Shown: positions 5,324 to 34,650 of the stretch, piece after piece
How the letters are laid out: every line of letters starts with the position of its first letter
How positions within the stretch are numbered: the stretch's first letter is position 1
NCBI GenBank assembly: GCA_944358665.1
Contig: CALVRP010000092.1
Location: 1 to 34,650 of the forward strand
DNA: 34,650 bases
Direction: 5' to 3'
DNA from: an uncultured Bacilli bacterium
GTDB lineage: Bacteria > Bacillota_I > Bacilli_A > RF39 > UBA660
Notes under the pieces: generated by a model
Databases searched by the model: none
Seen by the model: only the letters and a program-made list of their open reading frames with translations
What the model was told of the DNA's origin: nothing
Translations under genes and position numbers: made by a program

Positions 5324-5537
5324 GACAAAGCGATGATTAAGAGTAGTAATAGTAAAGCCTTTTATAGAGAAAAAGTGGCCGGTGAAAACTTTTAAAGGAT
5401 AGCTGTGAACTTACTTATGAGCTGCATATATGATAAGTGTATGACGAATAGACGCGTTAAGTCTTGAGGTAATCAAAGTATTATGAAATAGGGTGGTACC
5501 ACGTTATAAACGTCCCTATATACATAATACTTTTTTG
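5324..5537 (+). promoter_or_regulatory. T-box riboswitch leader, leucine specifier (CUU)
   Basis: The conserved elements occur in the canonical order. AGCGATGA…AGAGTA is the GA/K-turn. AGAGA…GGTGAAA is the Stem I AG bulge and distal loop. GAA-CTT-A (specifier CTT at 5410-5412) sits on the 3' strand of Stem I. GCGTTA is F-box-like. AAATAGGGTGGTACCACG (5487-5503) is the T-box sequence. A hairpin and T-run (5531-5536) follow. Confidence 0.85.
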
Positions 5538-5569
5538 TTAAATTTTAGTAGTAAAGGTGGTGATTTATT

Positions 5570-6562
5570 GTGTTAGATTCTAATTTTAATCGAATAATTG
5601 AAATGATTGAAAAAAGAAAAAATAATGCTTATAGAAAAGTAAATGAAGAGATGATATTACTTTATCTAGATGTCGGCAAATTTTTATATGAATTAACAGA
5701 AAAAGGAAGTTATGGAGATAAAGTTATTGATAAGGCTGCTGATTTCATGAAAAATAATTATCCAGATATAAAAGGCTTTACTAAAAGAAATCTTTATAGA
5801 ATGGTTCAATTTTATAAAACGTATAAAAATTATCCAAAAGTGTCAACACTGTTGACACAATTGAGTTGGTCTGGTAATATGCTTATTTTAAGTAATACTA
5901 AAACATGGGAAGAAAGAGAATTTTATTTAAATTTAGCTATAAAAGAAAATTATTCTGTAAGAGAATTAAATAGACAGTTACAATCTTCATATTACCAAAG
6001 ATATATGTTATCTGATGGAAAGGTATTGCCAACCCAAAAGAAAACCATTGACGAAAGCGATTACCCAAACACAAGATTACTAGATACATATAGTTTAGAG
6101 TTTTTAGATTTGCCAAATGAGTATTCTGAGAATGATTTAAAAACCGCCATAATTAAAAACTTAAAAGATTTTATTTTAGAAATTGGCAAAGATTTTACCT
6201 TTATTGGTGATGAATACCGAATACAAGTTGGGAATCATGATTATTTTATAGATTTATTATTTTATAATAGAGAATTATCTTGTTTGGTGGCTTTCGAGTT
6301 AAAATTAGGTGAATTTATGCCAGAGTATTTAGGTAAAATGAATTTTTATTTGGAAGCTTTAGATCGTGATGTTAAAAAAGAAAATGAAAATCCAAGCGTT
6401 GGTATTATTTTATGTAGCTCAAAGGATAAAGATGTGGTAGAATATTCACTTAGTAAAACCATGTCACAAACATTAATTTCTGAATATAAATTAAAATTGA
6501 TTGATAAAAAAATATTAGAAGATAAATTAAGTGAAATGAAACAATTATTAGATAATAACTAA
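5570..6562 (+). CDS. PD-(D/E)XK nuclease family protein, DUF1016/YhcG-like
   Basis: GTG start after AAAGGTGGTGA. It has an N-terminal helical region and a C-terminal …IDLLFYNRELSCLVAFELKLGEF… (D…E-x-K nuclease core), the layout I recall for YhcG/DUF1016 proteins. Confidence 0.7.
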   Translation: MLDSNFNRIIEMIEKRKNNAYRKVNEEMILLYLDVGKFLYELTEKGSYGDKVIDKAADFMKNNYPDIKGFTKRNLYRMVQFYKTYKNYPKVSTLLTQLSWSGNMLILSNTKTWEEREFYLNLAIKENYSVRELNRQLQSSYYQRYMLSDGKVLPTQKKTIDESDYPNTRLLDTYSLEFLDLPNEYSENDLKTAIIKNLKDFILEIGKDFTFIGDEYRIQVGNHDYFIDLLFYNRELSCLVAFELKLGEFMPEYLGKMNFYLEALDRDVKKENENPSVGIILCSSKDKDVVEYSLSKTMSQTLISEYKLKLIDKKILEDKLSEMKQLLDNN

Positions 6563-6573
6563 AGGGAGGATTT

Positions 6574-6918
6574 ATGGATTATATATTTACATTTATATTT
6601 TGTTTTTTAGTAATTTATTTACTATATTTATTTGTTATTATTTTAAGAAAAAAAGGTTTAGAAAAATTTAAAACAAGTAAGCAATTAGAATATTTTAAAA
6701 TAAAATTTAAATTAGATACGACTAAGATAAATTTTAAAAAATTTGCAAATACACTAGCAATGACTAATGCATTTATAATTGCTTTTACGGTAACGGTTAT
6801 TGATATATTTGATAATTGGATTTTAAAAATCTTAGTGGCCTTTGTTATTTTACTGCCACTGATGTATTTATTATATACAATATTAGGAAACCATTATAAA
6901 AAGAAAGAAGGTAAATAA
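6574..6918 (+). CDS. Small integral membrane protein (about 3 TM), unknown function
   Basis: ATG follows GGGAGG. It has hydrophobic helices. Its stop TAA (6916-6918) overlaps the leuS ATG (6918-6920) as TAATG, implying translational coupling. Confidence 0.55.
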
Positions 6919-9314
6919 TGTATAATTTTAAAGAAATTGAAAAAAAGTGGCAAAAATATTGGGAAGAAAATGAAACATATAAATTTGATTTTAATGGCGA
7001 TAATAAAATATATTGTTTAGAAATGTTTTCTTATCCATCAGGAGCAAAATTACATCTAGGACATTGGTATAATTATTCAGTGCCTGATACTTGGGTAAGA
7101 TTTAAAAGAATGAATGGTTATAATGTTTATCAACCGATGGGCTTTGATGCGTTTGGCCTTCCTGCTGAAAATTACGCGATTAAAACCGGGATTCATCCCA
7201 AAGATAGTACTGAAGCTAATATTAAAAATATGATTGAGCAAATTAAAGCCATTGGTGGTACTTTTGATTGGCATAATGATGTTGTAACCTGTAGGCCTGA
7301 ATATTATAAATGGACGCAGTGGATGTTTTTAAAACTTTATGAACATGGTCTTGCTTATCAAAAAGAAGCACCTGTTAACTGGTGTCCATCTTGTAATACG
7401 GTTTTAGCCAATGAACAAGCTCAAGGCGGAATTTGTGAAAGATGTGGTAGTGAAGTTATTCATAAGAATTTAAAACAATGGTTGTTTAAAATTACTGATT
7501 ATGCGGATCAGTTAATTGATGACTTAGATAAAATTGATTGGCCTGAGAAAACTAAGACTGCGCAAAAAAATTGGATTGGTCGTAGTAAAGGCGCAATTAT
7601 TAAATTTAAAATAAAAGATTCTGAAGAAAGTTTTGAGGTTTTCACAACTAGATGTGATACTTTGTACGGTTGTACTTATTGTGTGTTGGCCCCTGAAAAT
7701 CCATTAGTTGATAAAATCGTTAAAGAAGAAAATTTAAATGCTGTGGAAAAATACAAAAAAGAAACATCTAAACTAAGTGAGATTGATAGGACTTCAACAG
7801 TAAAAGAAAAAACAGGTGTTTTTACGGGGGCTTATGCCATAAATCCAATAAATGGCAGAGAAGTACCAATTTGGATTTCTGATTATGTATTAGCAAGCTA
7901 TGGAACTGGTGCTGTAATGGCTGTTCCGGCTCATGATGAACGTGATTTTGAATTTGCTACTAAATTTAATTTACGAATTATTAGAGTTATTGAAGGCTGT
8001 GATCTTCCTTATATAGAAGAAGGTAAATATGTAAATTCTCCAATATTAGATGGATTTAGTAGTAAAGAAGAGGCTATTAATAAAATGATAGAATTTTTAG
8101 AAGAAAATAACTATGGTTACAAAAAAGTAAATTACCGTTTAAGAGACTGGTCTGTAGGCCGTCAAAGATATTGGGGAGCGCCAATTCCAATTATTTATTG
8201 TGATGATTGTGGTGTTGTACCAGTTCCTGAAGAAGATCTTCCAGTAGAGCTTCCTTATAATGTAGAATTCACACCAGATGGTGAAAGCCCTCTTGCTAAA
8301 TGTGAAGAATTTGTTAATTGTACTTGTCCAAAATGTGGCAAAAAAGCCAAAAGAGAAGTTGATACTTTAGATACCTTTGTATGTTCTTCTTGGTATCAAT
8401 TTAGATATGCTGATCCATTCAACAAGGAAATGCCTTTTTCAAAAGAAAAAGTAAATAAGATGCTTCCGGTCGATAAATATATTGGTGGAGCTGAACACTC
8501 TTGTATGCATTTAATTTATTCAAGGTTCTTTACTAAAGCACTTCGTGATATGGGCTATCTAGATTTTGATGAACCTTTTGCATCGCTTATTCACCAAGGT
8601 TTAATTTTAGATGCTAATGGTGCCAAAATGAGTAAATCAAAAGGCAATACAATTTCTCCAGATGATTATGTCGATAAATATGGCAGTGATATTTTAAGGA
8701 CATATCTAATGTTTGCTTTTAGTTATACCGATGGTGGCCCTTGGAGTGAAGAGGGTATTAAATCAATTGATAGATTTTATAAACGTATTTTAAATTTAAT
8801 TGAAGAATTTGATGGTAATGATTCCGATGAACGTTATGATGATGTCGATTATGTTTTAAATAATAGTATTAAATGTATAAGAAACGATTTAGATAATTTT
8901 CAATTTAATACTTCAATTTCGAGAATTATGGAATATTTAAATATTCTAATCAAAAAGAAAAGCGAAGGACTAAGTATTCCTAAGCATTATTTAGAACAAC
9001 TTATTCTTATTCTTGCGCCTTTTGCTCCGCATTTCACTGAAGAAATGTGGGAAAAATTAGGTCATACACCGAGTATTCATAATGAAAAATATCCAATGTA
9101 TGACGAAAGTAAAATGGTAAAAAATACTTTTGAATTAGTTGTTCAAGTAAATGGTAAAGTTCGCGGTAAAATAACCGTTTCTAGTGATATTAGTAAAGAA
9201 GAAATGGAAGAAATCGCACTAAAAAACGATAATGTTAAAAAGCATATAGAAGGTAAGGGAATCATTAAAGTGATTGTTATTCCTAAAAAGTTAGTTAATA
9301 TTGTAGTTAAATAA
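6918..9314 (+). CDS. leuS: Leucyl-tRNA synthetase
   Basis: 798 aa. It has the HIGH motif (HLGHWYNY), KMSKS (KMSKSKGN), an editing-domain region ([15 protein letters not shown]) and zinc-type CPSC/CERC cysteines. Confidence 0.95.
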
Positions 9315-10590: not shown

Positions 10591-12614
10591 TGAAAATTGG
10601 TTTAGTAGGAAACCCAAATGTTGGTAAAAGTACCATTTTTAATGCCTTGACCGGGTTGCACCAACACACTGGTAATTGGCCCGGTAAAACGGTTACTAAG
10701 GCTAGTGGATATAAAAAATATAAAGGAATCAATTATTTGATTGAAGATTTACCAGGAACATATTCCTTAATGGCTCATTCTAAAGAAGAAGAAGTAACTA
10801 GAGATTTTATTTATAACGGTGATTATGATGCTTTAATTATTGTTTGTGATGCCGTTTGTTTAGAAAGAAATCTAAATTTAGTTATGCAGATTTTAGAAAT
10901 AACGAATAAAGTTGTTGTTTGTATTAATTTAATGGATGAGGCTAAAAAGAAAAAGATTAATATTGATCTTAATAGACTTTCAGAAATTTTAAAAGTACCA
11001 GTTGTTCCAGCAACAGCTAGAAGTGGTAAGGGTCTTGAAGAGATTATGGAAAACTTAAGTAAAGTCGTTAAAAATGAAAATAGTTATTTTCAGATAAAAT
11101 ATAATGAATATTTAAAAGAAGCTATAGAAGAACTTGAAATATTTATTGACAACAATGAGTTAAATAAAGATGTTGTTTGTTTAAATTTACTAACTAATAA
11201 AAAAAGTACAGTTGGAAATTATCAAAAGTTATATAATGATAAAATCTTTTTAAATAAATTGTCGGAAGTAAAAAATAAACTTTATAAAAAGGGAATAAAA
11301 AACGAAGACATTGAAACTTTGATTACTGAGGAGATAGTTGCGCAAGCCAGCGCTATAGCAAGCAAAGTGGTTACGTTTGAAAAAAAAGATTATCAGAAAA
11401 GAGATCGGCTAATTGATAAAGTAGTAACCCATAAAATTTTTAGTATTCCAATTATGCTACTATTGCTTTTATTTATTTTTTGGATAACTATTACTGGCGC
11501 TAATGCACCATCACAAATTTTATATGATTTATTCTTCAGTATTGAAGATGATTTAACTAATATTTTAACTTATTTACATATTCCAGATAGTGTAAATAAT
11601 ATGTTAGTTTATGGTGTTTACCGGGTTTTAGCTTGGGTTATATCAGTGATGTTACCCCCAATGGCTATATTTTTTCCTTTATTTACTTTATTAGAAGATT
11701 TAGGGTATTTACCTAGAATCGCTTTTTGTCTAGATAAAGCATTTAAAAAATGTGCCTCTTGCGGAAAACAAGCATTAACTATGGCTATGGGGTTTGGGTG
11801 TAATGCGGTAGGTGTTACAGGTGCGAGAATAATAGATTCGCCAAGAGAAAGATTAATGGCTATTTTAACTAATGTTTTTGTACCTTGTAATGGTAGGTTC
11901 CCATTACTTATAACTATGATTACAATGTTTTTAATAGCTGGTGGAAACAGTTTTACTAGTTCTTTAGTTCTTACCTTATTTATAGTAATTGGAATAATGG
12001 TAACCTTTCTTGTTACTAAAATATTATCAAAAACGCTTTTAAAAGGTGTTCCTTCATCTTTTACTTTAGAGCTTCCGGCTTACAGAAGGCCACAAATAAC
12101 GAAAGTGATTGTTCGTTCCATATTTGATAGAACTATTTTTGTTTTAAAAAGAGCTATATGTGCTAGTGCACCAGCAGGCCTCGTTATCTGGCTTATGGCT
12201 AATATTAGTATAGAAAGTGAAAGTATTTTACAAATATGTGCCAATGCTTTAGATCCATTTGCTAATTTAATTGGTTTAGATGGTGTGATTTTAATGGCTT
12301 TTATTCTCGCGATTCCAGCTAATGAAATAGTTATTCCAATTATTATCATGGGATATATGTCTTTAGGTTACTTAACAGACATGAATGACTTAACAGCTTT
12401 AAAAGATTTATTTATTCAAAATGGATGGACACCATTAACAGCTATCTGTGTTATGCTATTTTCGCTTATGCATTGGCCTTGTTTAACAACTCTTCTAACT
12501 ATAAAAAAAGAAACCGGCAGTTTAAAGTGGACCATACTTGCATTTTTAATTCCAACAGTAGTCGGAATAACAATCTGTTTCTTGGTTACAACTATATATA
12601 ATTTAATTTTTTAA
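10590..12614 (+). CDS. feoB: Ferrous iron transporter FeoB
   Basis: N-terminal G-domain (GNPNVGKSTIFNALTG, DLPGTYSL) followed by a polytopic membrane domain with the gate motifs; 674 aa. Confidence 0.93.
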   Translation: MKIGLVGNPNVGKSTIFNALTGLHQHTGNWPGKTVTKASGYKKYKGINYLIEDLPGTYSLMAHSKEEEVTRDFIYNGDYDALIIVCDAVCLERNLNLVMQILEITNKVVVCINLMDEAKKKKINIDLNRLSEILKVPVVPATARSGKGLEEIMENLSKVVKNENSYFQIKYNEYLKEAIEELEIFIDNNELNKDVVCLNLLTNKKSTVGNYQKLYNDKIFLNKLSEVKNKLYKKGIKNEDIETLITEEIVAQASAIASKVVTFEKKDYQKRDRLIDKVVTHKIFSIPIMLLLLLFIFWITITGANAPSQILYDLFFSIEDDLTNILTYLHIPDSVNNMLVYGVYRVLAWVISVMLPPMAIFFPLFTLLEDLGYLPRIAFCLDKAFKKCASCGKQALTMAMGFGCNAVGVTGARIIDSPRERLMAILTNVFVPCNGRFPLLITMITMFLIAGGNSFTSSLVLTLFIVIGIMVTFLVTKILSKTLLKGVPSSFTLELPAYRRPQITKVIVRSIFDRTIFVLKRAICASAPAGLVIWLMANISIESESILQICANALDPFANLIGLDGVILMAFILAIPANEIVIPIIIMGYMSLGYLTDMNDLTALKDLFIQNGWTPLTAICVMLFSLMHWPCLTTLLTIKKETGSLKWTILAFLIPTVVGITICFLVTTIYNLIF

Positions 12615-12618
12615 AATA

Positions 12619-12651
12619 AAAAGTAAAGATTCAATTTTCATCTTTACTTTT
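12619..12651. terminator. Bidirectional terminator hairpin shared by feoB and the convergent HTH gene
   Basis: 12-bp stem aaaagtaaagat (12619-12630) / atctttactttt (12640-12651), with A/T runs on both sides. Confidence 0.7.
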
Positions 12652-12846
12652 TTCAATAGTTATTAATTCTCCTGGATTACAGTTTAAATAGTAACAAAAT
12701 TCTTCAATATATTTAAAGGAAATAGAAGTGGTTTCTCCGCGAATAATTTTATTTAAATTTCTAGAGGTAATATTCATCTTTTGCCTTAGCCAGTATTTAC
12801 TTTTTTTATTTTTTTTAAGCAGTTCTTCAATATTTATTTTAATCAT
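12631..12846 (-). CDS. XRE/Cro-type helix-turn-helix transcriptional regulator (about 71 aa)
   Basis: MIKINIEELLKKNKKSKYWLRQKMNITSRNLNKIIRGETTSISFKYIEEFCYYLNCNPGELI is a typical HTH_XRE/HTH_26 pattern. The start is probably ATG 12846 (GGTGA upstream) rather than 12858. Confidence 0.75.
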   Translation of the reverse strand: MIKINIEELLKKNKKSKYWLRQKMNITSRNLNKIIRGETTSISFKYIEEFCYYLNCNPGELITIEKSKDEN

Positions 12847-12862
12847 AGGTATCACCAACTTA

Positions 12863-12920: not shown

Positions 12921-12951
<31 letters not shown>

Positions 12952-13021: not shown

Positions 13022-15910
13022 ATGAGGCGGGAGCGCAAAAGAAATAAAATAATAATAATGGTTAGTGCTGTTATATTATGTCTAATGGGAGTGGGTTATG
13101 CAGCTTTTCAAACCCAGTTAGATATTAAAGGAAATACCGAAATAAGTAGTGAGTGGAATATTAAAATAATAAGTGCCGAAGTAAGTGACATTGGTGGTTC
13201 TGGTGAGAATGTTAAAAATACTTATACTGATTTAACAGCTAATTTAGAAGCCAACTTATATAGTAAAGGTGATTATGTAGAGTATGAGGTTATAGTTGAA
13301 AACGCCGGAACTTTTGATGCGAAATTAGATACTTTAGGAATAACTAATAGTAATAATGAAGCGGTTAAAATAACATCATCAGGTTTAATAAAAGGTCAGC
13401 CTCTTTATAAAGGAGAGAGTGCTACTTTAACAGTAAGAATAGAATACAATAGTAATTACGAAGGAGACGCATCCGGAACTAGCGGAGAGACAACAGTAGA
13501 TTTAGGATTTGTTCAAAATAGTGAAGGAACAATAGTTCCAACAAATGATTATTTAGTAACTTATGATTACACTACTAATGGCGGAGAAAGTACAACTGCC
13601 GAGAATGAATATATAACTGAAGGCGAAAGTATTAATCTAAACTATACAGCTACTAAAACTAATTATGAATTTATAGGCTGGAATACAAATCAAGGGGCCT
13701 CAGAAGGATTAACTTCATTAACAATGGGAACAAGTGATATAACATTATATGCCATTTTTGAAGAGAGAATCCCACCAGAGATTAAACTATCTATTGGTGA
13801 TAATGTAGAAGGAGAAAATGATTGGTATAAAGGCTTAGATATAAATGTAGAAGCATCAGATAATGATAGTATAAAAGAAGCCTTATATTGTACAACTACA
13901 GAAGACACATGTACTCCAAATAAAAAGTTAGAACTTACAAATAATAAAGGAACAGTACAACTTGAAAGTAATAAAGATGCAAGTAAAGTATGCGTAAAGG
14001 CTACTGATAATGTTGGTAATGAAAGTACTACAAAATGCACAGATAGTTATAAAGTAGATGGAGAAGTTCCAACAATATCAAATATGACTGTAACTCCAGA
14101 TGATGATACCATGACAATAGAGTTAGAATCTAGTGACAATGAAAGTGGAATAGCTAAATATTATTTCAGTAAAGATAGTGGAAATAGTTATATAGAAAGT
14201 GATAATCCAAATTACACTTTTACATCACTAGATGAAGGAGATTATTTAGTAACTGCTTATGTTAAGGATAAAGCCGGAAATATCTCGGAGATAGAGGCTA
14301 AGTCAACTACTATAAGATATGCAGCCTTCTGTGAACATAATGACATAACTGATTTAGGAGACTGTATCATAGCTACCGAAGCTGGAAATGAAACTGATAT
14401 AGAACTTGCAAAATCCACTATAGAAGCTAAAGGGACACCTAATTTTAATACAACCAGTCCAAGCATTGTTTATAATGAATTACACGGAACAACAACATCG
14501 ACAACATCACATACATATTATGATAATATAGGAACAAATTATAGTTTTAATGCGACTACAGGAATATATACATTAAGAGATTATAGTTATGTCGATCCAT
14601 CTTCAATAGATTATAGTAGTGGAGATTATTATACTTGTATATCAACAGCTACAAGTTGTTCGACATTATATAAAATAACTGGAGTAACCACATCAACAAA
14701 CTCTTCCACTGGTCAAATCACGTATACAATAACAAAATATAACTACACCCAAACTCCAGCAAGTTATGATACAAGTGGAGTAGGAATGTATGCCGGAGAA
14801 GATAATGATGGAACTACCTATTATTACCGTGGCTCAGTTGGTGGAAACTACGTAAAATTTAATAATATGTACTGGCGAATAATAAGAGTAAATGGTGATG
14901 GCTCAGTTCGAATGATATATGATGGAACAAGTGCTCATGCTAATGGAGAGGCAAGCAGTAATAGACAAGTAACAACTAAAGCTTTTAATTCATATATCAA
15001 TGATAATGCCTATGTTGGTTATATGTATGGCGATGTCAATAATTTTGAGCAAACAGATAGTGGGTCTGTAACCTTTACCTATACTGGATTATCCAGCTCA
15101 GCAAGGTATTACTATGGTACGGATTATACTTTTAATGAAAGCACAAGAAGTTATACATTATCCGGAGATTTACACAATGGAACTTTAAGTAGTAGTCAAG
15201 TAGGATATTATACATGCTTTAGTACATCTAGTACGGCCTCATGCCAAAGATTATTCTATACTACAAGATATGCTTCAAGTACTTCAATGGTTGTAAGTGC
15301 AAGAGGTTACGGTTCAACATCATTAGAAGGAGCGCATGCCAATGTCACTGATAGTACAATGAAAACATACTTAGATAGTTGGTATAGTAGTAACTTAAGT
15401 AATCTCGATGATAAAATCTCTAAAGATGCAGTATTCTGTAATAACCGAAATAAATCAAGCAAAAATAGTGGAACATATACCAATACTGGTTATGGAATAA
15501 CACCAACAATCTATGGATATGAAAGATTCTGGAACTGGGCATCACAAGGAAAGTTAGATCCAACGTTAATGTGTGAAACGAATGATAGCTTTAGTGTTAA
15601 CCGGGGCAATAAAAAATTAACATACCCAGTTGGATTAATTACTGCTGATGAAGTAAACATAGCTGGCGGAATGACTGGTATGGTAAATTCGTTATATTAT
15701 TTATACACCGGAACTACATACTGGACCATGTCGCCGTCGTACTTCAGCAACTGGTTTAACGCTCTCGAGATGCTCGTCGACTCCTCAGGAGCGCTGGGCA
15801 GCAACGGCACCTCGAATGCGTACGGCGTGCGCCCAGTTATCAACCTAAATGCTGATAATCTGACGGTAACTGGATCTGGAACCATGGAAGACCCATTTGT
15901 TGTTTCGTAA
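13022..15910 (+). CDS. DGR target (variable) protein: N-terminal signal-anchor, Listeria-Bacteroides (InlB B-type) repeat, Ig-like domains, C-terminal lectin-like variable domain
   Basis: RBS AAGAGGTGA. The N-terminus is basic plus TM (MRRERKRNKIIIMVSAVILCLMGVGYAAF). YLVTYDYTTNGG…YEFIGWNT…ITLYAIF matches the Flg_new/InlB B-repeat. Two motifs of the form ATDNVGNES / VKDKAGNIS are typical of Ig-like surface domains. The C-terminus …YWTMSPS…AYGVRPVINL carries the VR. Confidence 0.85.
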   Translation: MRRERKRNKIIIMVSAVILCLMGVGYAAFQTQLDIKGNTEISSEWNIKIISAEVSDIGGSGENVKNTYTDLTANLEANLYSKGDYVEYEVIVENAGTFDAKLDTLGITNSNNEAVKITSSGLIKGQPLYKGESATLTVRIEYNSNYEGDASGTSGETTVDLGFVQNSEGTIVPTNDYLVTYDYTTNGGESTTAENEYITEGESINLNYTATKTNYEFIGWNTNQGASEGLTSLTMGTSDITLYAIFEERIPPEIKLSIGDNVEGENDWYKGLDINVEASDNDSIKEALYCTTTEDTCTPNKKLELTNNKGTVQLESNKDASKVCVKATDNVGNESTTKCTDSYKVDGEVPTISNMTVTPDDDTMTIELESSDNESGIAKYYFSKDSGNSYIESDNPNYTFTSLDEGDYLVTAYVKDKAGNISEIEAKSTTIRYAAFCEHNDITDLGDCIIATEAGNETDIELAKSTIEAKGTPNFNTTSPSIVYNELHGTTTSTTSHTYYDNIGTNYSFNATTGIYTLRDYSYVDPSSIDYSSGDYYTCISTATSCSTLYKITGVTTSTNSSTGQITYTITKYNYTQTPASYDTSGVGMYAGEDNDGTTYYYRGSVGGNYVKFNNMYWRIIRVNGDGSVRMIYDGTSAHANGEASSNRQVTTKAFNSYINDNAYVGYMYGDVNNFEQTDSGSVTFTYTGLSSSARYYYGTDYTFNESTRSYTLSGDLHNGTLSSSQVGYYTCFSTSSTASCQRLFYTTRYASSTSMVVSARGYGSTSLEGAHANVTDSTMKTYLDSWYSSNLSNLDDKISKDAVFCNNRNKSSKNSGTYTNTGYGITPTIYGYERFWNWASQGKLDPTLMCETNDSFSVNRGNKKLTYPVGLITADEVNIAGGMTGMVNSLYYLYTGTTYWTMSPSYFSNWFNALEMLVDSSGALGSNGTSNAYGVRPVINLNADNLTVTGSGTMEDPFVVS
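15728..15838 (+). repeat. DGR variable repeat (VR), codons 903-939 of the target gene
   Basis: 111 bp, 98/111 identical to 16010-16120. All 13 differences lie opposite TR adenines. Confidence 0.93.
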
Positions 15911-15947
15911 GAAACAACATTAAAAAACTTAATAATGATATATAATA

Positions 15948-15973
15948 GTCAAAAATGACTCTTCATTTTTGAC
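15948..15973 (+). terminator. Perfect 11-bp hairpin downstream of the target gene (terminator and/or DGR cis element)
   Basis: gtcaaaaatga (15948-15958) / tcatttttgac (15963-15973) with loop ctct. There is no T-tail after the stem. Confidence 0.45.
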
Positions 15974-16009
15974 CGGCATAGGGATTAGTCTCATAAGTGC
16001 GTGTGTGTT

Positions 16010-16120
16010 ATGTCGCCGTCGAACTTCAACAACTGGTTTAACGCTAACGAGATGAACGTCAACTCCTCAGGAGCGCTGAACAACAACAACACCTCGAATG
16101 CGTACGGCGTGCGCCCAATT
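16010..16120 (+). repeat. DGR template repeat (TR)
   Basis: Non-coding copy of the VR. In the VR reading frame it contains 11 AAC codons and 33 adenines in total. It is visibly GC-rich relative to its flanks. Confidence 0.93.
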
Positions 16121-16384
16121 TCCTACTACAATTAGTGATTATTTGCTAATGAACCGAGATGTTACAAGGCTACGGCTAATAACGGGAGGAAGTAGTTGCT
16201 GCAGGCAATAATCTATAAATTTAGATTGGAAACAAGATTAATTCCTTGGTCCTGCCTAAAAAGATAATATAGACGTTATATGACTATTTATAATATTTAT
16301 ATAACTACAGCTATATTGGTGGTAGAAATGTTAAGAGGTTTCTAGCCACACACCATAATTAAAATACTATTTTGGAGGAAATTT
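16121..16384 (+). ncRNA. Candidate DGR RNA spacer region downstream of TR (untranslated, several short hairpins)
   Basis: 264 nt with no credible ORF between TR and the accessory operon. It has nested stems gcagg (16201-05)/cctgc (16251-55), aatcta (16210-15)/tagatt (16222-27) and ggaa (16228-31)/ttcc (16242-45), plus a roughly 10-bp bulged stem at 16319-16349. Structure was judged by eye only. Confidence 0.3.
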
Positions 16385-16780
16385 ATGAAATTAATAGATA
16401 TTTATAACAGTTTAAAAGAACAGTATTTAGACGTAATAGTTTTAATGAAAAGTGGTAACTTTTATATAACTTATAATAATGATGCCCTAATATTAAATTA
16501 TCTCTTACACTATAAAAAGATAAATGGTAAAGTAGGTTTTCCTTTAAGTGCTTTAAAAACGGTGGAAAATAAGTTAAATGAAAAAGAAATAAGTTATATA
16601 GTTGCCCAAGAAAAAGAAAATTTAAAACAAAATAATAATTATTATATATATTTGCAAAAGGCTAATGAAAATTTAATAATCGATAATATGTGCGCCAATT
16701 TATTAAATAAAATAAAAGATAAAGTAGCTGAGAATTTTGATAATTATAAACAAATAAAGGAATATATAGATGAATTATAA
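16385..16780 (+). CDS. MutS domain I-like (mismatch-binding-domain-like) DGR accessory protein
   Basis: RBS GGAGG. LKEQYLDVIVLMKSGNFYITYNNDALILNYLL…GFPLSALKTVENKL parallels the MutS N-terminus (…QY…K…P…L…FRxGDFYELF…DA…LT…GvP…YL.KL). The Phe of the F-x-E mismatch motif is kept and the Glu is replaced (GNFYI, 16454-16468). It overlaps the next ORF by 11 nt. Confidence 0.6.
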   Translation: MKLIDIYNSLKEQYLDVIVLMKSGNFYITYNNDALILNYLLHYKKINGKVGFPLSALKTVENKLNEKEISYIVAQEKENLKQNNNYYIYLQKANENLIIDNMCANLLNKIKDKVAENFDNYKQIKEYIDEL

Positions 16781-17123
16781 TTTTAAAATTTTAAATAGTA
16801 CTTATAAAACTATTAATTATATAAATAAATTACTCGTAAATTTCCCCAAAAAAGAAGTTGTTCTTAAAAATAATATAGAAAAAACATGCTACGCAGCAAT
16901 TGAAAATATCTTCGCTTTTAACATTAATGACAGTATTCGTATTAAAGAAAAATATTTAAAAGATTTACTAGTAAAATTATCAATGTTAGATTTTTATACG
17001 AGAACTTCATATGATAAAAAAGTAATAAGTCGTCATCAATTCGAAGTTGTTAGTCGTTTTTTAATTCAAATAAGAAAGATGGCTTTTGGTTTAAAAAAGA
17101 AAGACGGTGAAGTAAGTGTCTAA
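16770..17123 (+). CDS. avd: Avd-like accessory variability determinant (four-helix-bundle protein)
   Basis: 117 aa. …INKLLVNFPKKEVVLKNNIEKTCYAAIENIFAF…LKDLLVKLSMLDFYTRTSY…ISRHQFEVVSRFLIQIRKMAFGLKK matches the FPK-x-E… / basic C-terminal pattern of Avd / 23S-IVS four-helix-bundle proteins. Its position in a DGR operon supports the call. Confidence 0.7.
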   Translation: MNYNFKILNSTYKTINYINKLLVNFPKKEVVLKNNIEKTCYAAIENIFAFNINDSIRIKEKYLKDLLVKLSMLDFYTRTSYDKKVISRHQFEVVSRFLIQIRKMAFGLKKKDGEVSV

Positions 17124-17763
17124 AAAAAAGATAATAATCATTATAATTATCGCGTTAATTATTTTAGGTATCATAATATATTTTGTAAATAAGAATTCTA
17201 ATGATCTTGCCATAAATAGTATAGTAAAACACGATGTAGCTGAAGATTTATATAAAGCAGTAGAACCAAATGAATGCGTTAATATAGATATAAATGAAAA
17301 GGTAAGTACACAAAAAATGAATGATGAAGTATTGCTTTATTTAATTTTCGGTCAAATGAACAAGGATAAATTGCTAACAGATAATATAAGTTTAAATGAC
17401 TTTAATAAGAGTGCAAAAAAAATATTAGGTGATGTAAAGATACCTAAACAAATTAAAAATTATGTATATGATGGTTATGTTTACAATTTAAATAATGATA
17501 AAATTACTAGGGAAAAGTATAATTGTGGTGATAAAAAATATGTGTCTAAATTATATGGGTACACAACTAATGAAAATCAGCTGATTTTAAATATTGCTGT
17601 CGCATATATTCAAAATGGTACTGTTTATAATTTAGATGATGAATTATTAGGTGAGTATGATGAAGAAAATTTAAATGAAATTTTAGATAAAGGTACGATG
17701 GAAGTATATACTTACACAAATACAAATGGTGATTATATTTTAGAAAGTATATCTTTAAAATAA
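17116..17763 (+). CDS. Membrane-anchored protein of unknown function embedded in the DGR operon
   Basis: GTG start overlapping the avd end by 8 nt. Its stop TAA (17761-63) overlaps the RT ATG (17763-65). It has an N-terminal TM (KKKIIIIIIIALIILGIIIYFV) and then a soluble domain of about 190 aa. No family was recognised. Confidence 0.55.
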   Translation: MSKKKIIIIIIIALIILGIIIYFVNKNSNDLAINSIVKHDVAEDLYKAVEPNECVNIDINEKVSTQKMNDEVLLYLIFGQMNKDKLLTDNISLNDFNKSAKKILGDVKIPKQIKNYVYDGYVYNLNNDKITREKYNCGDKKYVSKLYGYTTNENQLILNIAVAYIQNGTVYNLDDELLGEYDEENLNEILDKGTMEVYTYTNTNGDYILESISLK

Positions 17764-18875
17764 TGAGAGTAGAGTATAATGATATTTTATCCATAGATAA
17801 AATTATCGAAGTTTATAAAAATATTTGTTCAAATACTTGTCACAAGGCAAAGTTAGTTAAATTTGAATTAGCTTTTTCTTGTAATATAACAAAAATTCTA
17901 TGTTTGTTAAAAGAAAAAAAGTATAAACATAGTCATTACAGCACGTTTTTAATAAAAGAGCCAAAGTATCGGATAATTATGAGTGAATGTATATTTGATA
18001 AAATTGTCAATCATTTAATTAGTAAATACGTTCTTTTGCCATCTTTAATACCTAAGTTAATAAACATGAATGTCGCAACTAGAAAGTATAAAGGAAGTAA
18101 GGCTGGTATTAATTATTTGAAAAAATATATAAATAAATTAAAACAAAACTATGATAAAATTTATGTTTTAAAATGTGATATTAGTAAATACTTTTATAAT
18201 ATAAATCATGATATTCTAATAAAGAAATTACAAAAAGATATTCCTGATAAAGATTTGCAAAAAATAATTATTGAAATTATTAGTAGTACCAATTATGACT
18301 ATATAAATAAGCAAATAGATAGATTAATTGAAAAAGAAATTTTCCATTTGAAGGAAAAACAAATTTCTGATTTAGAAATAAAAATAAAAATAAAAGAACT
18401 GCATAGTTTACCGCGCTATAAAAAAGGAACTGGGTTACCTATAGGTAATGAAACAAGTCAAATTTTAGCTATATATTATTTAAATGAGCTTGATCATTAT
18501 ATAAAAGAAAAATTAAAAATAAAATATTATATAAGATATATGGATGATTTTATTTTACTGCATCGTGATAAAGAATATTTAAAATATTGTAAGGATAAAA
18601 TAAAAGAAAAAATAGAAGAGTTAGATTTAAAATTAAATAAAAAAACTCAAATATATGACTTAGATAAAGGTTTAAATTTTTTGGGTTATAAATTTAAATT
18701 AAAAGGTAAAAAATTAATTATTCTAATAAATAATCAAACCAAAAAAAGAGTAAAAAGAAAACTAAAAAAAATGAAAAAGAAAAATGTTAATAATTATAAG
18801 CAAGTAAAAGCAAGTTATAATGGTTATTTTAAAATAGCCAATACTAAAAACTTTTTATATAAAGCAAGATTTTAA
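17763..18875 (+). CDS. DGR-type reverse transcriptase
   Basis: RT motifs are present: KYRIIMSECIFDKIVNHLI (motifs 1-2), LKCDISKYFYNINH (motif 3), LPIGNETSQILAIYYLNELD (18441-18461; the [ILV]GxxxSQ signature of DGR RTs) and YMDD (18537-18548). No maturase/endonuclease or retron-like context. Confidence 0.88.
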   Translation: MRVEYNDILSIDKIIEVYKNICSNTCHKAKLVKFELAFSCNITKILCLLKEKKYKHSHYSTFLIKEPKYRIIMSECIFDKIVNHLISKYVLLPSLIPKLINMNVATRKYKGSKAGINYLKKYINKLKQNYDKIYVLKCDISKYFYNINHDILIKKLQKDIPDKDLQKIIIEIISSTNYDYINKQIDRLIEKEIFHLKEKQISDLEIKIKIKELHSLPRYKKGTGLPIGNETSQILAIYYLNELDHYIKEKLKIKYYIRYMDDFILLHRDKEYLKYCKDKIKEKIEELDLKLNKKTQIYDLDKGLNFLGYKFKLKGKKLIILINNQTKKRVKRKLKKMKKKNVNNYKQVKASYNGYFKIANTKNFLYKARF

Positions 18876-18879
18876 AAAA

Positions 18880-18924
18880 CACGGCCTATCTAATTTCCCG
18901 TCTCATTGGTAGGCCGTGCTTTTT
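18880..18924. terminator. Bidirectional terminator between the RT and the convergent radical SAM gene
   Basis: cacggccta (18880-18888) / taggccgtg (18910-18918) with a large loop, A-run upstream and T-run downstream. Confidence 0.55.
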
Positions 18925-30670: not shown

Positions 30671-31690
30671 ATGGCAAAAGATTTAATGATTAGAAGTAGT
30701 AGTGCTGAATTTTTAATTTTTGAAAGACAAACTCATGATAAGGGAATCCAAGTTAGATTTGAAAATGGAGATTTATGGTTAACTCAAAGAGCCATTGGCG
30801 AGCTCTATAATGTTGATCGTACTGTAATTACAAAACATATAAAAAATATATATTCTGAATTGGAATTGAATGAACAGTCAACTAGTGCAATTTTTGCACT
30901 AGTTCAACAGGAAGGAAATCGTAATATTGAAAGAAAATTAAAATATTATAATTTAGATATGGTTATTTCTGTTGGTTATCGGGTTAATTCGGACAGGGCA
31001 ATTCAGTTTAGAAGATGGGCCACAAATATATTAAAAGAATTTTCTAAAAAAGGATATATAATTGATAAAAGAAGAATGGCTAACGGAACATTCTTTGATG
31101 AAGATTATTATGATTTATTATTAGCAGAAATAAGAGAAATAAGGTTATCTGAAAGAAGGTTTTATCAAAAAATTACCGATATTTATGCTACTAGCATTGA
31201 TTATGATAGAAAATCGCCGACAACAATTAAATTTTTTAAAAAAGTACAAAACAAAATGCACTATGCAGTATCACATCAAACCGCTGCTGAAATTATTTAT
31301 AATAGATCAAATGCTGAAAATGAGCATATGGGGCTTACAAATTGGAAAAACTCACCAAAGGGTAAAATACTGGAAACAGATGTGATAATTGCTAAGAACT
31401 ATTTATCTAAAGATGAATTAGAACAACTAGAATTAATTGTTACAGCTTTTTTAGATTTGGCTGAAGCTAGAGCCAAAAGACATATACCTATGACTATGGA
31501 AGATTGGGCTACTAGAATCGATAAATTTTTATTGTCTGATGATAGAGATATATTAAAAGATGCTGGTAAAATATCTCATGAAATAGCTTGTGATAAGGCT
31601 TTAACTGAATTTGAAAGATATAGAGTGAAACAAGACAAATTATATAAATCAGATTTTGATTTATTGTTAGAAGAAATAGATAAATCATAA
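30671..31690 (+). CDS. RhuM-family (virulence protein RhuM-like) protein
   Basis: …FENGDLWLTQRAIGELYNVDRTVITKHIKNIY…YYNLDMVISVGYRVNSDRAIQFRRWATNILKEF…KGYIIDKRRM… is the conserved RhuM core as I recall it. Confidence 0.75.
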   Translation: MAKDLMIRSSSAEFLIFERQTHDKGIQVRFENGDLWLTQRAIGELYNVDRTVITKHIKNIYSELELNEQSTSAIFALVQQEGNRNIERKLKYYNLDMVISVGYRVNSDRAIQFRRWATNILKEFSKKGYIIDKRRMANGTFFDEDYYDLLLAEIREIRLSERRFYQKITDIYATSIDYDRKSPTTIKFFKKVQNKMHYAVSHQTAAEIIYNRSNAENEHMGLTNWKNSPKGKILETDVIIAKNYLSKDELEQLELIVTAFLDLAEARAKRHIPMTMEDWATRIDKFLLSDDRDILKDAGKISHEIACDKALTEFERYRVKQDKLYKSDFDLLLEEIDKS

Positions 31691-31804
31691 TTTAGGATAA
31701 TTTCAAATTGCATAGTAGCTAAACCCTGTTTTTTGTTTGAATTTGCAAAATATCAGAAAATATTATAAAATAGCATTCAATGAAAAAAGAAACAGGTGGT
31801 TGAT

Positions 31805-34650
31805 ATGGCTAATGAAATAGGATTATATAGGCATAACGCAAAAGCTTATGAAAAAGCAAAAAATAATTTAAAAAGTAATGATAGAACTTGTATTGTACAT
31901 GCAACTGGTACTGGTAAGTCCTTTATTGCTCTTCAGGTAATGTATGATTTTATTAAAAATAATCCTGGTAAAAAAATAATTTATTTAACACCACTTAGCG
32001 GAATTAAAGAGCAAGTAAAAGAACATATTAATAAAATAGAAAGAGATAATAAAGAAAAAGGGATAGAATTTCATAGAAAATATTTTGATAATGTAGAATT
32101 TCTTAATTATCAAGCTTTAATTACTAAAAGTGAGGCAGAATTAAAAGCATTAGAAGCAGATTTATTAATAACAGATGAGTTTCATCATATTGGCGCGCCA
32201 GAGTGGACAAGAGCTATTGATGTTTTAATAGAGAGTCACCCTAATATAAAAATATTTGGTATGAGTGCGACTAGGGTCAGAGAAAGAGGTACCGCCAATG
32301 AACAAGATGTTGTAAAGACGTTCTTTAATGGTAATATCGCAAGTGAGTACCCACTAGAAGAGGCTATTTCTGATGGAGTATTACCGGCTCCAAATTATCA
32401 TGCCACTTTAGTTTTTTTAGAAGATGAATGCAGAGAGTTAGAAGAAAAAGTAAAAGAGGGTAATTCTTCTAAAGAAGAAAAAGAAGAATTTAAAAAAGTA
32501 TTAAAAAATATAAAGAAAAAAATAGCTTCAATGGGAGAGAAAACAGTTCAAGATATAATAAATGAATATATAAAAAGAGATGGGAAATATATTTATTTTT
32601 GCCCGCAAGGCGTCGATATCAAAGAAATTCAAAATAATTTTTTAGAAATGTTTACCGAAGAAGAAAGAAAAAATATAGAATTTTATACAGTTCATAGTTC
32701 AAAATATACAAGCAAAGAAAATGAAACTATGTCAAATAATTTTTATCACAATATTACTAGTGATGGTAAGGATGCTAAAAGAAAATTAAGAATAATGTTT
32801 GCTATTAATATGTATAATGAAGGTATTCATGTTCCTGATATTGATGGAGTAATAATGGGAAGAAATACAGAGTCAGATATAATATTTTACCAACAATTAG
32901 GAAGAGCCTTAGCTGTTAAGAAAAAAGATGACAATGATGAAAGTATTATAGAATCACCATTAGTAATAGATCTTCAAGATAATTTTAGAAAAATATTAAA
33001 ATTATATAAAGAAGTCAAACGTAAAATCACGGAAAAGGAAAATTATTATCAAAACGAAACATCTGTAAAAGACAAAAGAGAATTGTTTTATACTTTCGGA
33101 ATAGATGATGAAATTATAAATATTGTAGAAGAGTTAGATAATGTAAAAGCAAGGCTTAATTTTAAATTAACCTTTGAAGAAAAAATGAAAGAATTTTTGG
33201 AATATATAAGAAATAACCCAATTCCCTCAAAGACTAATAAAACAGTAACATTTAATGATAACGTTCCAATGGGAAGTTGGTGGAATGTTAATAAGAAAAA
33301 AGTTTATGAAATGCAAGAAGAAAATAAAGTGGCTAAAGAAATAGTTGTTATAATATTAAAAAAAGAGCCAAATTATTTTTTAGAAAAATTAACCTTTGAA
33401 GAAAAAATGAAAGAGTTTTTGGAATATATTAAAAAAAATGAAATCCCAACTGATGATTCTCCTGCTTGCTTTTCAGATGGCACAAAAATGGGGTATTGGT
33501 GGAGTGATAATAAAAAAATAATATATAATTTACAAGCAGAAAGTGAAATTGCTAAACAAATTATTGAAATTTACAACAAAAAAAGAAGGTTAAGTAAAAA
33601 AGAAAAAAAGCAAAGATTTTTAGCATATATTAAAGAAAATTCTGTTCCAACGCAAAAAGATGGTGCGCTGTTTAGCGATGGCACTCAAATGTATGAATGG
33701 TGGCGGGGTAATAAAAAAATGATATCACAATCACAATACGAAGATGAATTAGCCCGGCAAATTATGGATGTAGTAAATTCACAACTACCATCATTAGAAA
33801 AAAAAATAGCTGAACTTTTAGACTTTATTGAAAAATACGGTTATATACCAACTAAAAGAGACCAAAAAGCTGAATTTACTGATGGTACTAAAATTGGATG
33901 TTGGTGGCATAATCATAAAAATGAAATCCTTGAAATATATGATATTAATGAAAATGCTAAAAAAGTCACAGACTTTTATATGGCTAACAGAAAATTATCG
34001 TTTAAAGAAAAGATGGCCGAGTTTTTAGAATATATTAAGAAATATACAATTTCTGAGATTTTAGCTGAAGAAATCAAATTTACAGATAATTCTCTAGTAG
34101 GTAAATGGTGGAAAAAGTACAAAAACAAAATTAACGATATAAAAGATACAAATGAACTAGCTAAAGAAATAATGCAAATAATAAATGAACTTACTGATGA
34201 AGAAAAAATAGCTGAAATATTTAAAATTTATGAAGCCACCGGTGAATTGCCTAATATGGATGACCCGGAAAAATTTAGCGATAATTCAGATGCAATAGGC
34301 TACTGGCTTTATAAAAATAAGAAAAAAATCATAAAATACGCCGCAACAAATTATAAAGCAAGAGTAATAGCCCAGGCAAATGGTTGGTTAAAATTAACCG
34401 ATGAAGAAAAGATAAATGAAATATATGAGATTTATGAAGAAACTGGTAATTTGCCTACTTTCCGTAATCCAAATAAATTTAGCGATGGTTCTGGTACAAT
34501 AGGTCACTGGCTTTATAAAAATAAGGAAAAAATCATAAAATACGCTGAAACAAATTATAAAGCAAGAGTAATAGCCCAGGAAAAAGGTTGGTCAAAACCT
34601 TCAGCGTTCCAAGAAGAAAAACCAAAGGTGATTAGTAAATTAATAATAAA
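31805..34650 (+). CDS. SF2 (DExH, ResIII-type) helicase with C-terminal tandem helicase-associated (HA) domains; 3' end beyond the window
   Basis: Open frame from ATG 31805 to the window end; it is absent from the ORF track because no stop is reached. Motif I is HATGTGKS, II DEFHH, III SAT (GMSAT) and VI QQLGRALA. At least 7 repeats of about 60-70 aa of the type L(T/S)xEEKxxEFLxYI…P…F(S/T)DG…G.WW…NK follow. Confidence 0.8.
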   Translation, partial: MANEIGLYRHNAKAYEKAKNNLKSNDRTCIVHATGTGKSFIALQVMYDFIKNNPGKKIIYLTPLSGIKEQVKEHINKIERDNKEKGIEFHRKYFDNVEFLNYQALITKSEAELKALEADLLITDEFHHIGAPEWTRAIDVLIESHPNIKIFGMSATRVRERGTANEQDVVKTFFNGNIASEYPLEEAISDGVLPAPNYHATLVFLEDECRELEEKVKEGNSSKEEKEEFKKVLKNIKKKIASMGEKTVQDIINEYIKRDGKYIYFCPQGVDIKEIQNNFLEMFTEEERKNIEFYTVHSSKYTSKENETMSNNFYHNITSDGKDAKRKLRIMFAINMYNEGIHVPDIDGVIMGRNTESDIIFYQQLGRALAVKKKDDNDESIIESPLVIDLQDNFRKILKLYKEVKRKITEKENYYQNETSVKDKRELFYTFGIDDEIINIVEELDNVKARLNFKLTFEEKMKEFLEYIRNNPIPSKTNKTVTFNDNVPMGSWWNVNKKKVYEMQEENKVAKEIVVIILKKEPNYFLEKLTFEEKMKEFLEYIKKNEIPTDDSPACFSDGTKMGYWWSDNKKIIYNLQAESEIAKQIIEIYNKKRRLSKKEKKQRFLAYIKENSVPTQKDGALFSDGTQMYEWWRGNKKMISQSQYEDELARQIMDVVNSQLPSLEKKIAELLDFIEKYGYIPTKRDQKAEFTDGTKIGCWWHNHKNEILEIYDINENAKKVTDFYMANRKLSFKEKMAEFLEYIKKYTISEILAEEIKFTDNSLVGKWWKKYKNKINDIKDTNELAKEIMQIINELTDEEKIAEIFKIYEATGELPNMDDPEKFSDNSDAIGYWLYKNKKKIIKYAATNYKARVIAQANGWLKLTDEEKINEIYEIYEETGNLPTFRNPNKFSDGSGTIGHWLYKNKEKIIKYAETNYKARVIAQEKGWSKPSAFQEEKPKVISKLII
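33167..34650 (+). repeat. Tandem array of at least 7 HA-domain coding repeats, two pairs nearly identical at DNA level
   Basis: Repeat starts at 33167 and 33389 share about 42 nt with one mismatch. 34302-34387 and 34506-34591 are 86-nt near-identical blocks with about 7 mismatches. Confidence 0.8.

Follow-up and report, generated by a model that had tools for sequence, protein, structure and literature searches.

The stretch of DNA analysed here (the window: 34,650 nucleotides, contig CALVRP010000092.1 of GenBank assembly GCA_944358665.1, from an uncultured Bacilli bacterium) carries what is, with very little doubt, a complete diversity-generating retroelement (DGR), resident in the host chromosome, of the type that contains a MutS-domain-I-like accessory protein (MSL), and presumably working according to the paradigm of Bordetella phage BPP-1. 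The cassette is arranged in the order target-TR-spacer-MSL-avd-ORF-RT: a gene for a surface protein, which holds the variable repeat (VR), is followed by the template repeat (TR), a structured spacer, the genes for MSL and Avd, an open reading frame (ORF) for a 215-aa membrane protein, and the reverse transcriptase (RT) gene (Table 1).

VR and TR are the sole long direct repeat reported by a repeat finder between positions 12000 and 20000, with 88% identity. TR is non-coding and begins 100 nt past the stop codon of the target gene. Base-by-base comparison of the two copies finds 13 mismatches, every one of them at a TR adenine (13 of 33 adenines, none of the 78 other bases); under random placement of the mismatches, the probability that adenines receive all of them would be (33/111)^13 = 1.4e-7. 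Twelve of the mismatches affect the first or second base of an AAC codon in frame. Of the 11 such codons eight are altered, and in VR these encode Y, S, L, L, D, G, S and G. The thirteenth turns ATT into GTT, and all changes in VR are non-synonymous. Changes have accumulated at 12 of the 22 adenines within AAC codons and at one of the 11 elsewhere (Fisher p=0.02), and the near constancy of the latter suggests that VR is under functional selection, as expected for the scaffold of an expressed protein. The G+C content of the repeat is 51%, against 28.6% for the window as a whole. A repeat pair with adenine-only differences, one copy inside the 3' end of a 962-aa gene and the other in the non-coding DNA just downstream, had been described in a first-pass annotation of the same DNA, and both the mismatch pattern and the coordinates bear this description out.

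Adenine-directed variation is directly observed in a sister species, whose RT is 71% identical to that of the window. Two versions of its locus (L004 and L016; related loci are given L numbers throughout) come from independent gut metagenome assemblies. Their sequences agree without a mismatch for 2,900 bp upstream and 255 bp downstream of VR, and show 16 differences within it, 15 of which lie opposite TR adenines. The orthologous element in the sister species demonstrably diversifies its VR at adenines.

The two repeats share a G+C-rich 3' end and part ways past it, where VR continues with GTTATCAACC and TR with ATTTCCTACT. The motif GGCGT[CG]CGCCC terminates every copy of VR and TR in all relatives, as well as in a DGR from Muribaculaceae (L003). 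This putative boundary element, which resembles the initiation of mutagenic homing (IMH) and IMH* sequences and encodes G-V-R-P, is thus shared across phyla. In L003 (8080-8205, 9910-10035), where the RT is 46% identical, TR and VR end with the same GGCGTCCGCCCA motif, after which TR goes on with A and VR with G.

The four ORFs downstream of TR lie on the same strand as the target gene and have overlapping ends, in keeping with the same-strand operon of the earlier description. Among solved structures, the best match of the last of these proteins is the bRT of BPP-1 (8ub7, E=1.1e-25); group II intron RTs match at 2.4e-9, and Drt3a at 1.7e-4. The same protein matches PHROG 1423 with 277.6 bits. 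One might suppose that it belongs to another class of RT (group II intron, retron, or DRT/Abi) and that the 3' end of the target gene was partly duplicated by coincidence to give the repeat pair, considering that the best match in NCBIfam is the group II intron RT/maturase TIGR04416 (99.5 bits), with Drt3a at 63 bits, and that PADLOC returns a generic RT model as best, along with DRT models at no more than 87 bits. These NCBIfam scores, however, are far under the respective cut-offs of 300 and 200 bits, the scores of the PADLOC DRT models are likewise far from family level, and bRT leads the other solved relatives by 16 orders of magnitude in E-value. The protein has IGNETSQ in place of QGxxxSP, the motif of group II and retron RTs, and searches against Rfam, of the window with the gathering score and of the surroundings of TR with E<=1, detect neither a group II intron RNA nor a retron RNA. 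Moreover, a simple duplication would not be expected to yield the adjacent avd gene or mismatches restricted to adenines at the p value given above. We find this explanation hardly credible. The RT, judged by sequence comparison, is of the DGR type and closer to bRT than to the other RT classes, in agreement with what its YMDD and IGNETSQ motifs had indicated at first pass.

Avd is present in about 74% of DGRs, and the Avd-like ORF noticed earlier is matched here by Pfam bAvd above the cut-off and by PHROG 3206, "Avd protein of DGR", at E=9e-21. The ORF in front of it had been called MutS-like, and its Pfam MutS_I match is likewise above the cut-off. The isoelectric points (pI) of both products fit the ranges for these accessory classes, 9.5±0.7 for Avd and 7.2±1.7 for MSL, that are given by Wu et al. 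2018 (PMC5758913). HRDC is matched by no ORF of the cassette in Pfam, and sequence searches of the PDB with MSL, Avd and the C-terminus of the target protein give no meaningful match. MSL is kept in the window, L001, L004 and L007, and is probably also present in L022, where a 147-aa ORF occupies the corresponding position; the cassettes of L014 and of the L008-L010 clade lack MSL. A 129-aa ORF 3' of the RT gene in L008 was considered as a relocated MSL and rejected, as it has no similarity to MSL and no MutS_I match. On the evolutionary scale MSL is dispensable, and it may be best seen as an optional helper derived from MutS domain I.

The RNA around TR provides a further line of evidence. 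Over roughly 200 nt past TR, the nucleotide sequence of the spacer keeps 78-84% identity between loci, compared to 66-80% for the RT proteins of the same loci. In an alignment of 12 distinct loci, RNAalifold predicts 65 pairs, 19 of which show compensatory changes; 97% of the alignment cells are paired, compared to 35-52% in controls where the 3' partners were slid by 1-3 columns, and the observed covariation score was reached by no shuffle. The 11-bp duplex that brackets TR is paired in 100% of 110 cells (10 sequences), with three pairs changed on both sides, and the slid controls reach 26-67%. A local hairpin at 16221-16241 (helix 7 of RNAalifold) and this long-range duplex are mutually exclusive, and the hairpin was discarded because the duplex has better covariation support. 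The stem-loop located right after TR has one compensatory and three one-sided changes. The single-sequence fold yields the same helices, namely this stem-loop and a helix between the 3' end of TR and the spacer. No Rfam family corresponds to the TR-flanking RNA at gathering score, or near TR at E<=1.

Matching RNA elements have been described in the ribonucleoprotein (RNP) of BPP-1, by cryo-EM, and in 207 other Avd-containing DGRs (bioRxiv 10.1101/2023.10.23.563531). By analogy, the bracketing duplex would parallel the upstream/downstream "stop" duplex of BPP-1, the stem-loop after TR would parallel its Avd-binding stem-loop, and the helix at the 3' end of TR, predicted here, would parallel its template:primer duplex. 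Two more hairpins are found between VR and TR. The one that contains the stop codon of the target gene is a candidate target-site hairpin or cruciform, similar in size to the target hairpin of BPP-1; it is kept in L001, L004, L007 and L017 without covariation, and is absent in L022. The other one, at 15947-15974, recurs in every relative, and its stem has changed in a compensatory manner in L001 (GGCAAAAATGA/TCATTTTTGCC) and L022. It was tried as a terminator of the target gene and rejected, since no T-run follows the hairpin on the + strand.

The target protein has a hydrophobic signal or anchor at its N-terminus, followed by Pfam matches to Flg_new (Listeria-Bacteroides repeat, 1.2e-9) and PKD (PKD/Ig-like domain, 1.6e-4). 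The C-terminal region of about 370 aa has thousands of homologues, some of them annotated as DUF6273. The structure of the C-terminal 373 aa was modelled at pLDDT 93, and phage DUF6273 proteins head the fold matches of the model (E=3.7e-4, probability 0.95-0.98), with DUF1566 proteins lower down. A lectin-like fold is a likely candidate for the DUF6273-like domain that holds VR. About 80 nt upstream of the start of the target gene, in the intergenic region that separates it from a divergent helix-turn-helix (HTH) gene, there is a run of 22 T at 12921-12942, then AAA, then 8 more T. The run is missing from the orthologous region of L001. Such a homopolymer could serve as a slipped-strand phase-variation switch for the target promoter.

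The cassette is flanked by feoA/feoB upstream and, downstream and on the opposite strand, by the radical SAM tRNA-modification gene mnmL/ytqA (TIGR01212, 343 bits). The same feoB...mnmL/ytqA...dcuC site holds a cassette in an uncultured Bacilli metagenome-assembled genome (MAG), with an RT 80% identical, and in several human-gut metagenome contigs, with RTs 66-71% identical. When genome contigs were searched with the RT as the query, two loci only were found, that of the sister MAG and the Muribaculaceae DGR. Many DGRs are phage-borne, and the cassette might have been the cargo of a prophage or another mobile element; RT and Avd match phage families, the C-terminal fold of the target matches phage DUF6273 proteins, and a RhuM-family gene is located 12 kb away. 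Yet the neighbours are all housekeeping or ordinary chromosomal genes, and the cassette is accompanied neither by genes for integrase, capsid, tail or transposase nor by a tRNA at its flanks. Insertion site and gene order, furthermore, are constant across species with 66-80% RT identity, which indicates that the element is resident and vertically inherited. Mobile cargo is thus a very improbable description, and the host residence between feoB and a radical SAM gene that was proposed at first pass stands, with no phage, integrase or transposase gene in the scanned parts of the window.

A chromosomal DGR of this anatomy would be expected to operate as follows. The non-coding region at approximately 15980-16345 would be transcribed, and in the transcript the duplex of 15981-15991 with 16235-16245 would bracket TR, a tetraloop-capped stem-loop would fold just after TR, and a further helix would return 16185-16194 to the 3' boundary of TR. 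The RT-Avd complex would bind this TR-spacer RNA and copy TR to cDNA, misincorporating opposite adenines, and VR, in the 3' part of the gene for the 962-aa protein, would then be replaced by the cDNA. This exchange is envisaged to begin at the shared G+C-rich 3' segment, where VR-specific sequence starts, possibly with the use of the stop-codon hairpin. With 11 AAC codons, the tip that a DUF6273/C-type-lectin-like domain would expose on the surface protein could take some 10^13 forms.

Several results weigh against this interpretation of the locus. The NCBIfam model DivGenRetAVD scores 47.9 bits against Avd, under its cut-off of 80, and the VR region matches the end of DUF6273 in Pfam with 17 bits, below the cut-off of 23.5. 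In the fold search of the PDB with the C-terminus of the target protein, the top matches, to the C-terminal domain of Legionella Lcl and to several C-type lectins, are non-significant (E>=1), perhaps because the model has several domains; a C-type-lectin fold is therefore not claimed for this region. The helix between the 3' end of TR and the spacer is invariant among the aligned loci, so that covariation cannot support it. Target hairpins of phage DGRs have G+C-rich stems 4-34 bp from VR (PMC3240598); the stop-codon hairpin is rich in A+T, with GTAA instead of GRNA in its loop, and lies 59 nt past VR. Finally, the RT and the 215-aa protein of the window are absent from a contig index under exact look-up, and a scan of metagenome contigs with the window's VR/TR, carrying N at every TR-adenine position, gives 0 matches.

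Alternatively, the window's copy might have DGR anatomy but be now silent, domesticated or decaying, with a VR that was fixed some time ago; the 0 matches in the scan for its VR are compatible with this. Only 13 of the 33 TR adenines differ in VR, and the odd adenine-poor TR-like copies that lie beside the spacer in some relatives (see below) could signal decay of the family. Against silence, not one non-adenine difference is seen over the 111 nt, the four ORFs downstream are all intact and coupled in translation, and the RT retains its catalytic YMDD; in addition, the RNA elements have been conserved through compensatory changes, and orthologues are demonstrably diversifying. A silent copy seems to us rather unlikely. 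The proposal that the element is active or was active recently holds directly for the orthologue in the sister species, and only indirectly for the window's own copy, through its intact genes, its conserved RNA and the lack of non-adenine differences; combined with the comparison of L004 and L016, these features indicate that this copy most likely is active now or was so recently.

The 215-aa acidic protein has no match in Pfam, PADLOC or PHROG. Its AlphaFold2 model has pLDDT 75, and a fold search of the PDB gives nothing at E<1e-3; partial similarities to NTF2-like proteins were weak and are not relied on. The ORF sits between avd and the RT gene, with overlapping start and stop codons, in every related cassette, those without MSL included. 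Such constancy might be taken as a sign that retrohoming depends on the protein as a new accessory factor of DGRs, which might for instance tether the RNP or couple homing to the envelope, and that it is not a partner of the target. Its N-terminal transmembrane helix and predicted extracytoplasmic domain argue otherwise, as does the lack of any match to a nucleic-acid-binding fold. Among 1.84 billion representatives, a profile search collected only 122 members of the family, and five more distant ones (L011, L012, L013, L024, L025) were looked up. No RT adjoins any of them, the contig of L024 being too short to inform. In L011, L012 and L025 the relative adjoins a large surface-protein gene with an N-terminal signal of the target's type (G-x-Y-A-[WYA]-F), and in L012 and L025 the neighbouring surface protein also has the Listeria-Bacteroides repeat of the target; in L013 the relative adjoins unrelated genes. 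Since the family is found outside DGRs, beside genes for related surface proteins, the protein is probably not a retrohoming factor, and we regard that role as unlikely. Most likely it is a partner of the surface protein that is carried along within the operon, with a role perhaps in anchoring or assembly.

Only one TR is present in the window, whereas its relatives have 2-6 tandem TR-like cassettes between the target gene and the spacer, repeated with a period of about 165 nt. Each cassette is preceded by a GGG..TAATCT duplex arm and has GGCGTCCGCCCAATTTCC at its end, and the full structured spacer abuts the last cassette only. Two copies of the spacer are found in the group of L009, L010, L017 and L019. 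The order of the cassettes varies from strain to strain, and the one that borders the spacer in L010 has internal counterparts in L017 (100% identity) and L019 (97%). In most loci VR corresponds to the TR beside the spacer; the VR of L017 matches an internal cassette (2 non-adenine and 14 adenine differences), and that of L016 matches a cassette that is found in L004 and missing from the L016 contig. These patterns could reflect switching of template cassettes by recombination, or else be an artefact of assembly, as metagenome assemblers can mis-join such repeats.

In the RT-P0008 clade (L009:745-850, L010:6650-6755, L017 and L019), the last TR-like copy, before the second spacer, is adenine-poor (16 A over the 114 nt that precede the spacer) and has an in-frame TAG. 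Such a copy would be a poor template for diversification. In L008 (5740-5860) and L018 (1-190), the sequence of the target gene runs directly into the 3' end of TR and the spacer; these junctions could be VR/TR recombinants or repeat-induced mis-assemblies. A more far-reaching idea is that this DGR lineage has two layers of variation, with recombination of cassettes swapping the scaffold of the variable domain and adenine mutagenesis acting on top of it, the window being the simplest, single-template state, and that the 215-aa protein is an unrecognised companion of the target. We put this forward tentatively, as a conjecture more doubtful than probable. If confirmed, the arrays of TR cassettes would be a more interesting result than the DGR itself.

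The other genes of the window include greA, pyk (pyruvate kinase), a GH31 glycosidase gene, leuS, feoAB, mnmL/ytqA, dcuC, ygjP, two genes for pcsB-like peptidases, a gene for a murJ-like flippase, and clpC. The HTH gene upstream of the target is at the same position in L001 and L008, and not in L004; it is a possible regulator, and its membership in the element is uncertain. Terminators had been placed on both sides of the cassette, and by eye an AT-rich hairpin with a T-run is seen after feoB at 12620-12655, and another hairpin with a T-run at 18880-18924, which is likely a bidirectional terminator; a consensus terminator scan, on the other hand, flagged neither, the loop of the second hairpin (about 18 nt) being beyond the limits of the hairpin scan. 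Elsewhere in the window, a T-box leader (121 bits) at 5324-5520 is followed by genes for a YhcG/DUF1016 PDDEXK nuclease (5570-6562) and a 114-aa protein, and leuS begins only at 6918 (region 5324-9314); the nuclease and the 114-aa ORF may have been inserted as a pair between the T-box leader and leuS. At the other end, an ORF that overruns the 3' end of the window (31784-34650) encodes a helicase-like N-terminal part and then at least 7 repeats of about 68 aa with the motif F-x-D-G-x-x-x-G-x-W-W, the last two of which (204 nt) have 82% DNA identity. The RhuM-family gene, at 30671-31690, is just upstream of it.

Table 1. Features of the cassette and TR-cassette arrays in related loci (positions are those of the window unless a locus is named).
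Feature	Position	Strand	Description
Cro/C1-type HTH gene	12631-12858	-	Pfam HTH_26 E=1.3e-13; divergent from target gene
Target gene	13022-15910	+	962 aa; secreted or anchored surface protein (ORF list, Pfam)
VR	15728-15838	+	111 nt; codons 903-939 of the 962-codon target gene, inside its last 61 codons
IMH/IMH*-like boundary	15811-15838	+	G+C-rich 3' end common to VR and TR, ending ...GCGTACGGCGTGCGCCCA
Stop-codon hairpin	15898-15917	+	GTTGTTTC-GTAA-GAAACAAC; 8-bp stem, 4-nt loop with the stop codon; 59 nt past VR
Hairpin between target stop codon and TR	15947-15974	+	11-12 bp, CTCT loop
Bracketing duplex, upstream arm	15981-15991	+	GGGATTAGTCT; about 20 nt upstream of TR; pairs with 16235-16245
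TR	16010-16120	+	111 nt; 33 adenines; 11 in-frame AAC codons
TR-3'-end:spacer helix (predicted)	16118-16127 and 16185-16193	+	AUUUCCUACU and GGAGGAAGU, then A16194; encloses the 16131-16150 stem-loop
Structured spacer RNA	16121-16345	+	about 230 nt; downstream part of the DGR RNA; covariation
Stem-loop right after TR	16131-16150	+	8 bp and UUAU tetraloop
Bracketing duplex, downstream arm	16235-16245	+	AGATTAATTCC; pairs with 15981-15991
MSL (MutS-domain-I-like accessory)	16385-16780	+	131 aa, pI 6.6; Pfam MutS_I 29.5 bits (cut-off 20.6), E=9.4e-7
avd	16770-17123	+	117 aa, pI 9.8; Pfam bAvd 44.8 bits (cut-off 40)
215-aa acidic protein	17116-17763	+	N-terminal transmembrane helix and predicted extracytoplasmic alpha/beta domain
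DGR reverse transcriptase	17763-18875	+	370 aa; Pfam RVT_1; IGNETSQ and YMDD
Hairpin with T-run (by eye)	18880-18924		CACGGCCTA...TAGGCCGTG and TTTTT; between the convergent RT and radical SAM genes
TR-cassette arrays	L007:3160-3779; L004:6099-6375; L010:5850-6755; L009:100-850; L022:1320-1600		
TR-cassette arrays	L017:4990-6220; L019:40-1275	reverse	

As a DGR, the element is an ordinary member of a well-catalogued kind and adds little, since DGR loci have been surveyed at large scale in several papers and the MSL architecture is published. Its value is rather that of a clean comparative handle, since several species of gut Bacilli have this chromosomal DGR, by vertical inheritance, at one and the same locus. 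The presence and absence of MSL among the cassettes is a natural test of the contribution of the MutS-like protein, the covariation of the TR-flanking RNA is sufficient to define a structure model that can be compared with the BPP-1 RNP, and the membrane protein that is always co-encoded hints at how the diversified surface protein is deployed.

The closest parallels are with the DGR of BPP-1 (mtd-avd-TR-brt). Both elements have adenine-specific differences between TR and VR that are concentrated in AAC codons, a ligand-binding protein with VR at its C-terminus, an RT with the [ILV]GxxxSQ and YMDD motifs, a basic Avd, and a G+C-rich 3' end common to TR and VR, as well as a bracketing duplex, a tetraloop stem-loop after TR, and a TR-3'-end:spacer helix, the latter predicted here. 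The BPP-1 DGR is phage-borne, whereas this one is chromosomal; in the window TR is upstream of avd and 1.6 kb from the RT gene, and there are two genes beyond the BPP-1 set. The spacer RNA here is about 230 nt in length, the candidate target hairpin differs in its AT-rich stem, its loop and its distance from VR, and the target domain is DUF6273-like rather than Mtd-like.

The difference in gene order from the phage paradigm that had been pointed out at first pass is real, but the arrangement is not new. In the survey cited above (PMC5758913), Architecture D covers the MSL-containing DGRs, 16 of which are listed, MSL being found with avd and never with HRDC, and one MSL belongs to a DGR of Legionella pneumophila. 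As in that architecture, a small (112-283 aa), near-neutral MutS-like protein is encoded here along with avd and without an HRDC gene, and the VR domain appears to lie in the DUF1566/CLec2-like neighbourhood; a difference is that MSL is present in the cassettes of some relatives and absent from those of others. TR is usually directly adjacent to the RT gene according to the same paper, and its location 1.6 kb upstream is accordingly a minority arrangement and not a new kind. The accessory classes named there are four (avd, HRDC, MSL and CH1), and the 215-aa membrane ORF is outside them. Finally, the DGRs of Bacteroides (bioRxiv 10.1101/2024.11.15.621889) and the TvpA system of Treponema denticola are similar in being host-resident, human-gut or host-associated, and in having a surface target with a C-terminal variable domain. 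They differ from the element of the window in that the host here is an uncultured low-GC member of the Bacilli, the accessory set is another one, and the target combines the Listeria-Bacteroides repeat with PKD and a DUF6273-like domain.

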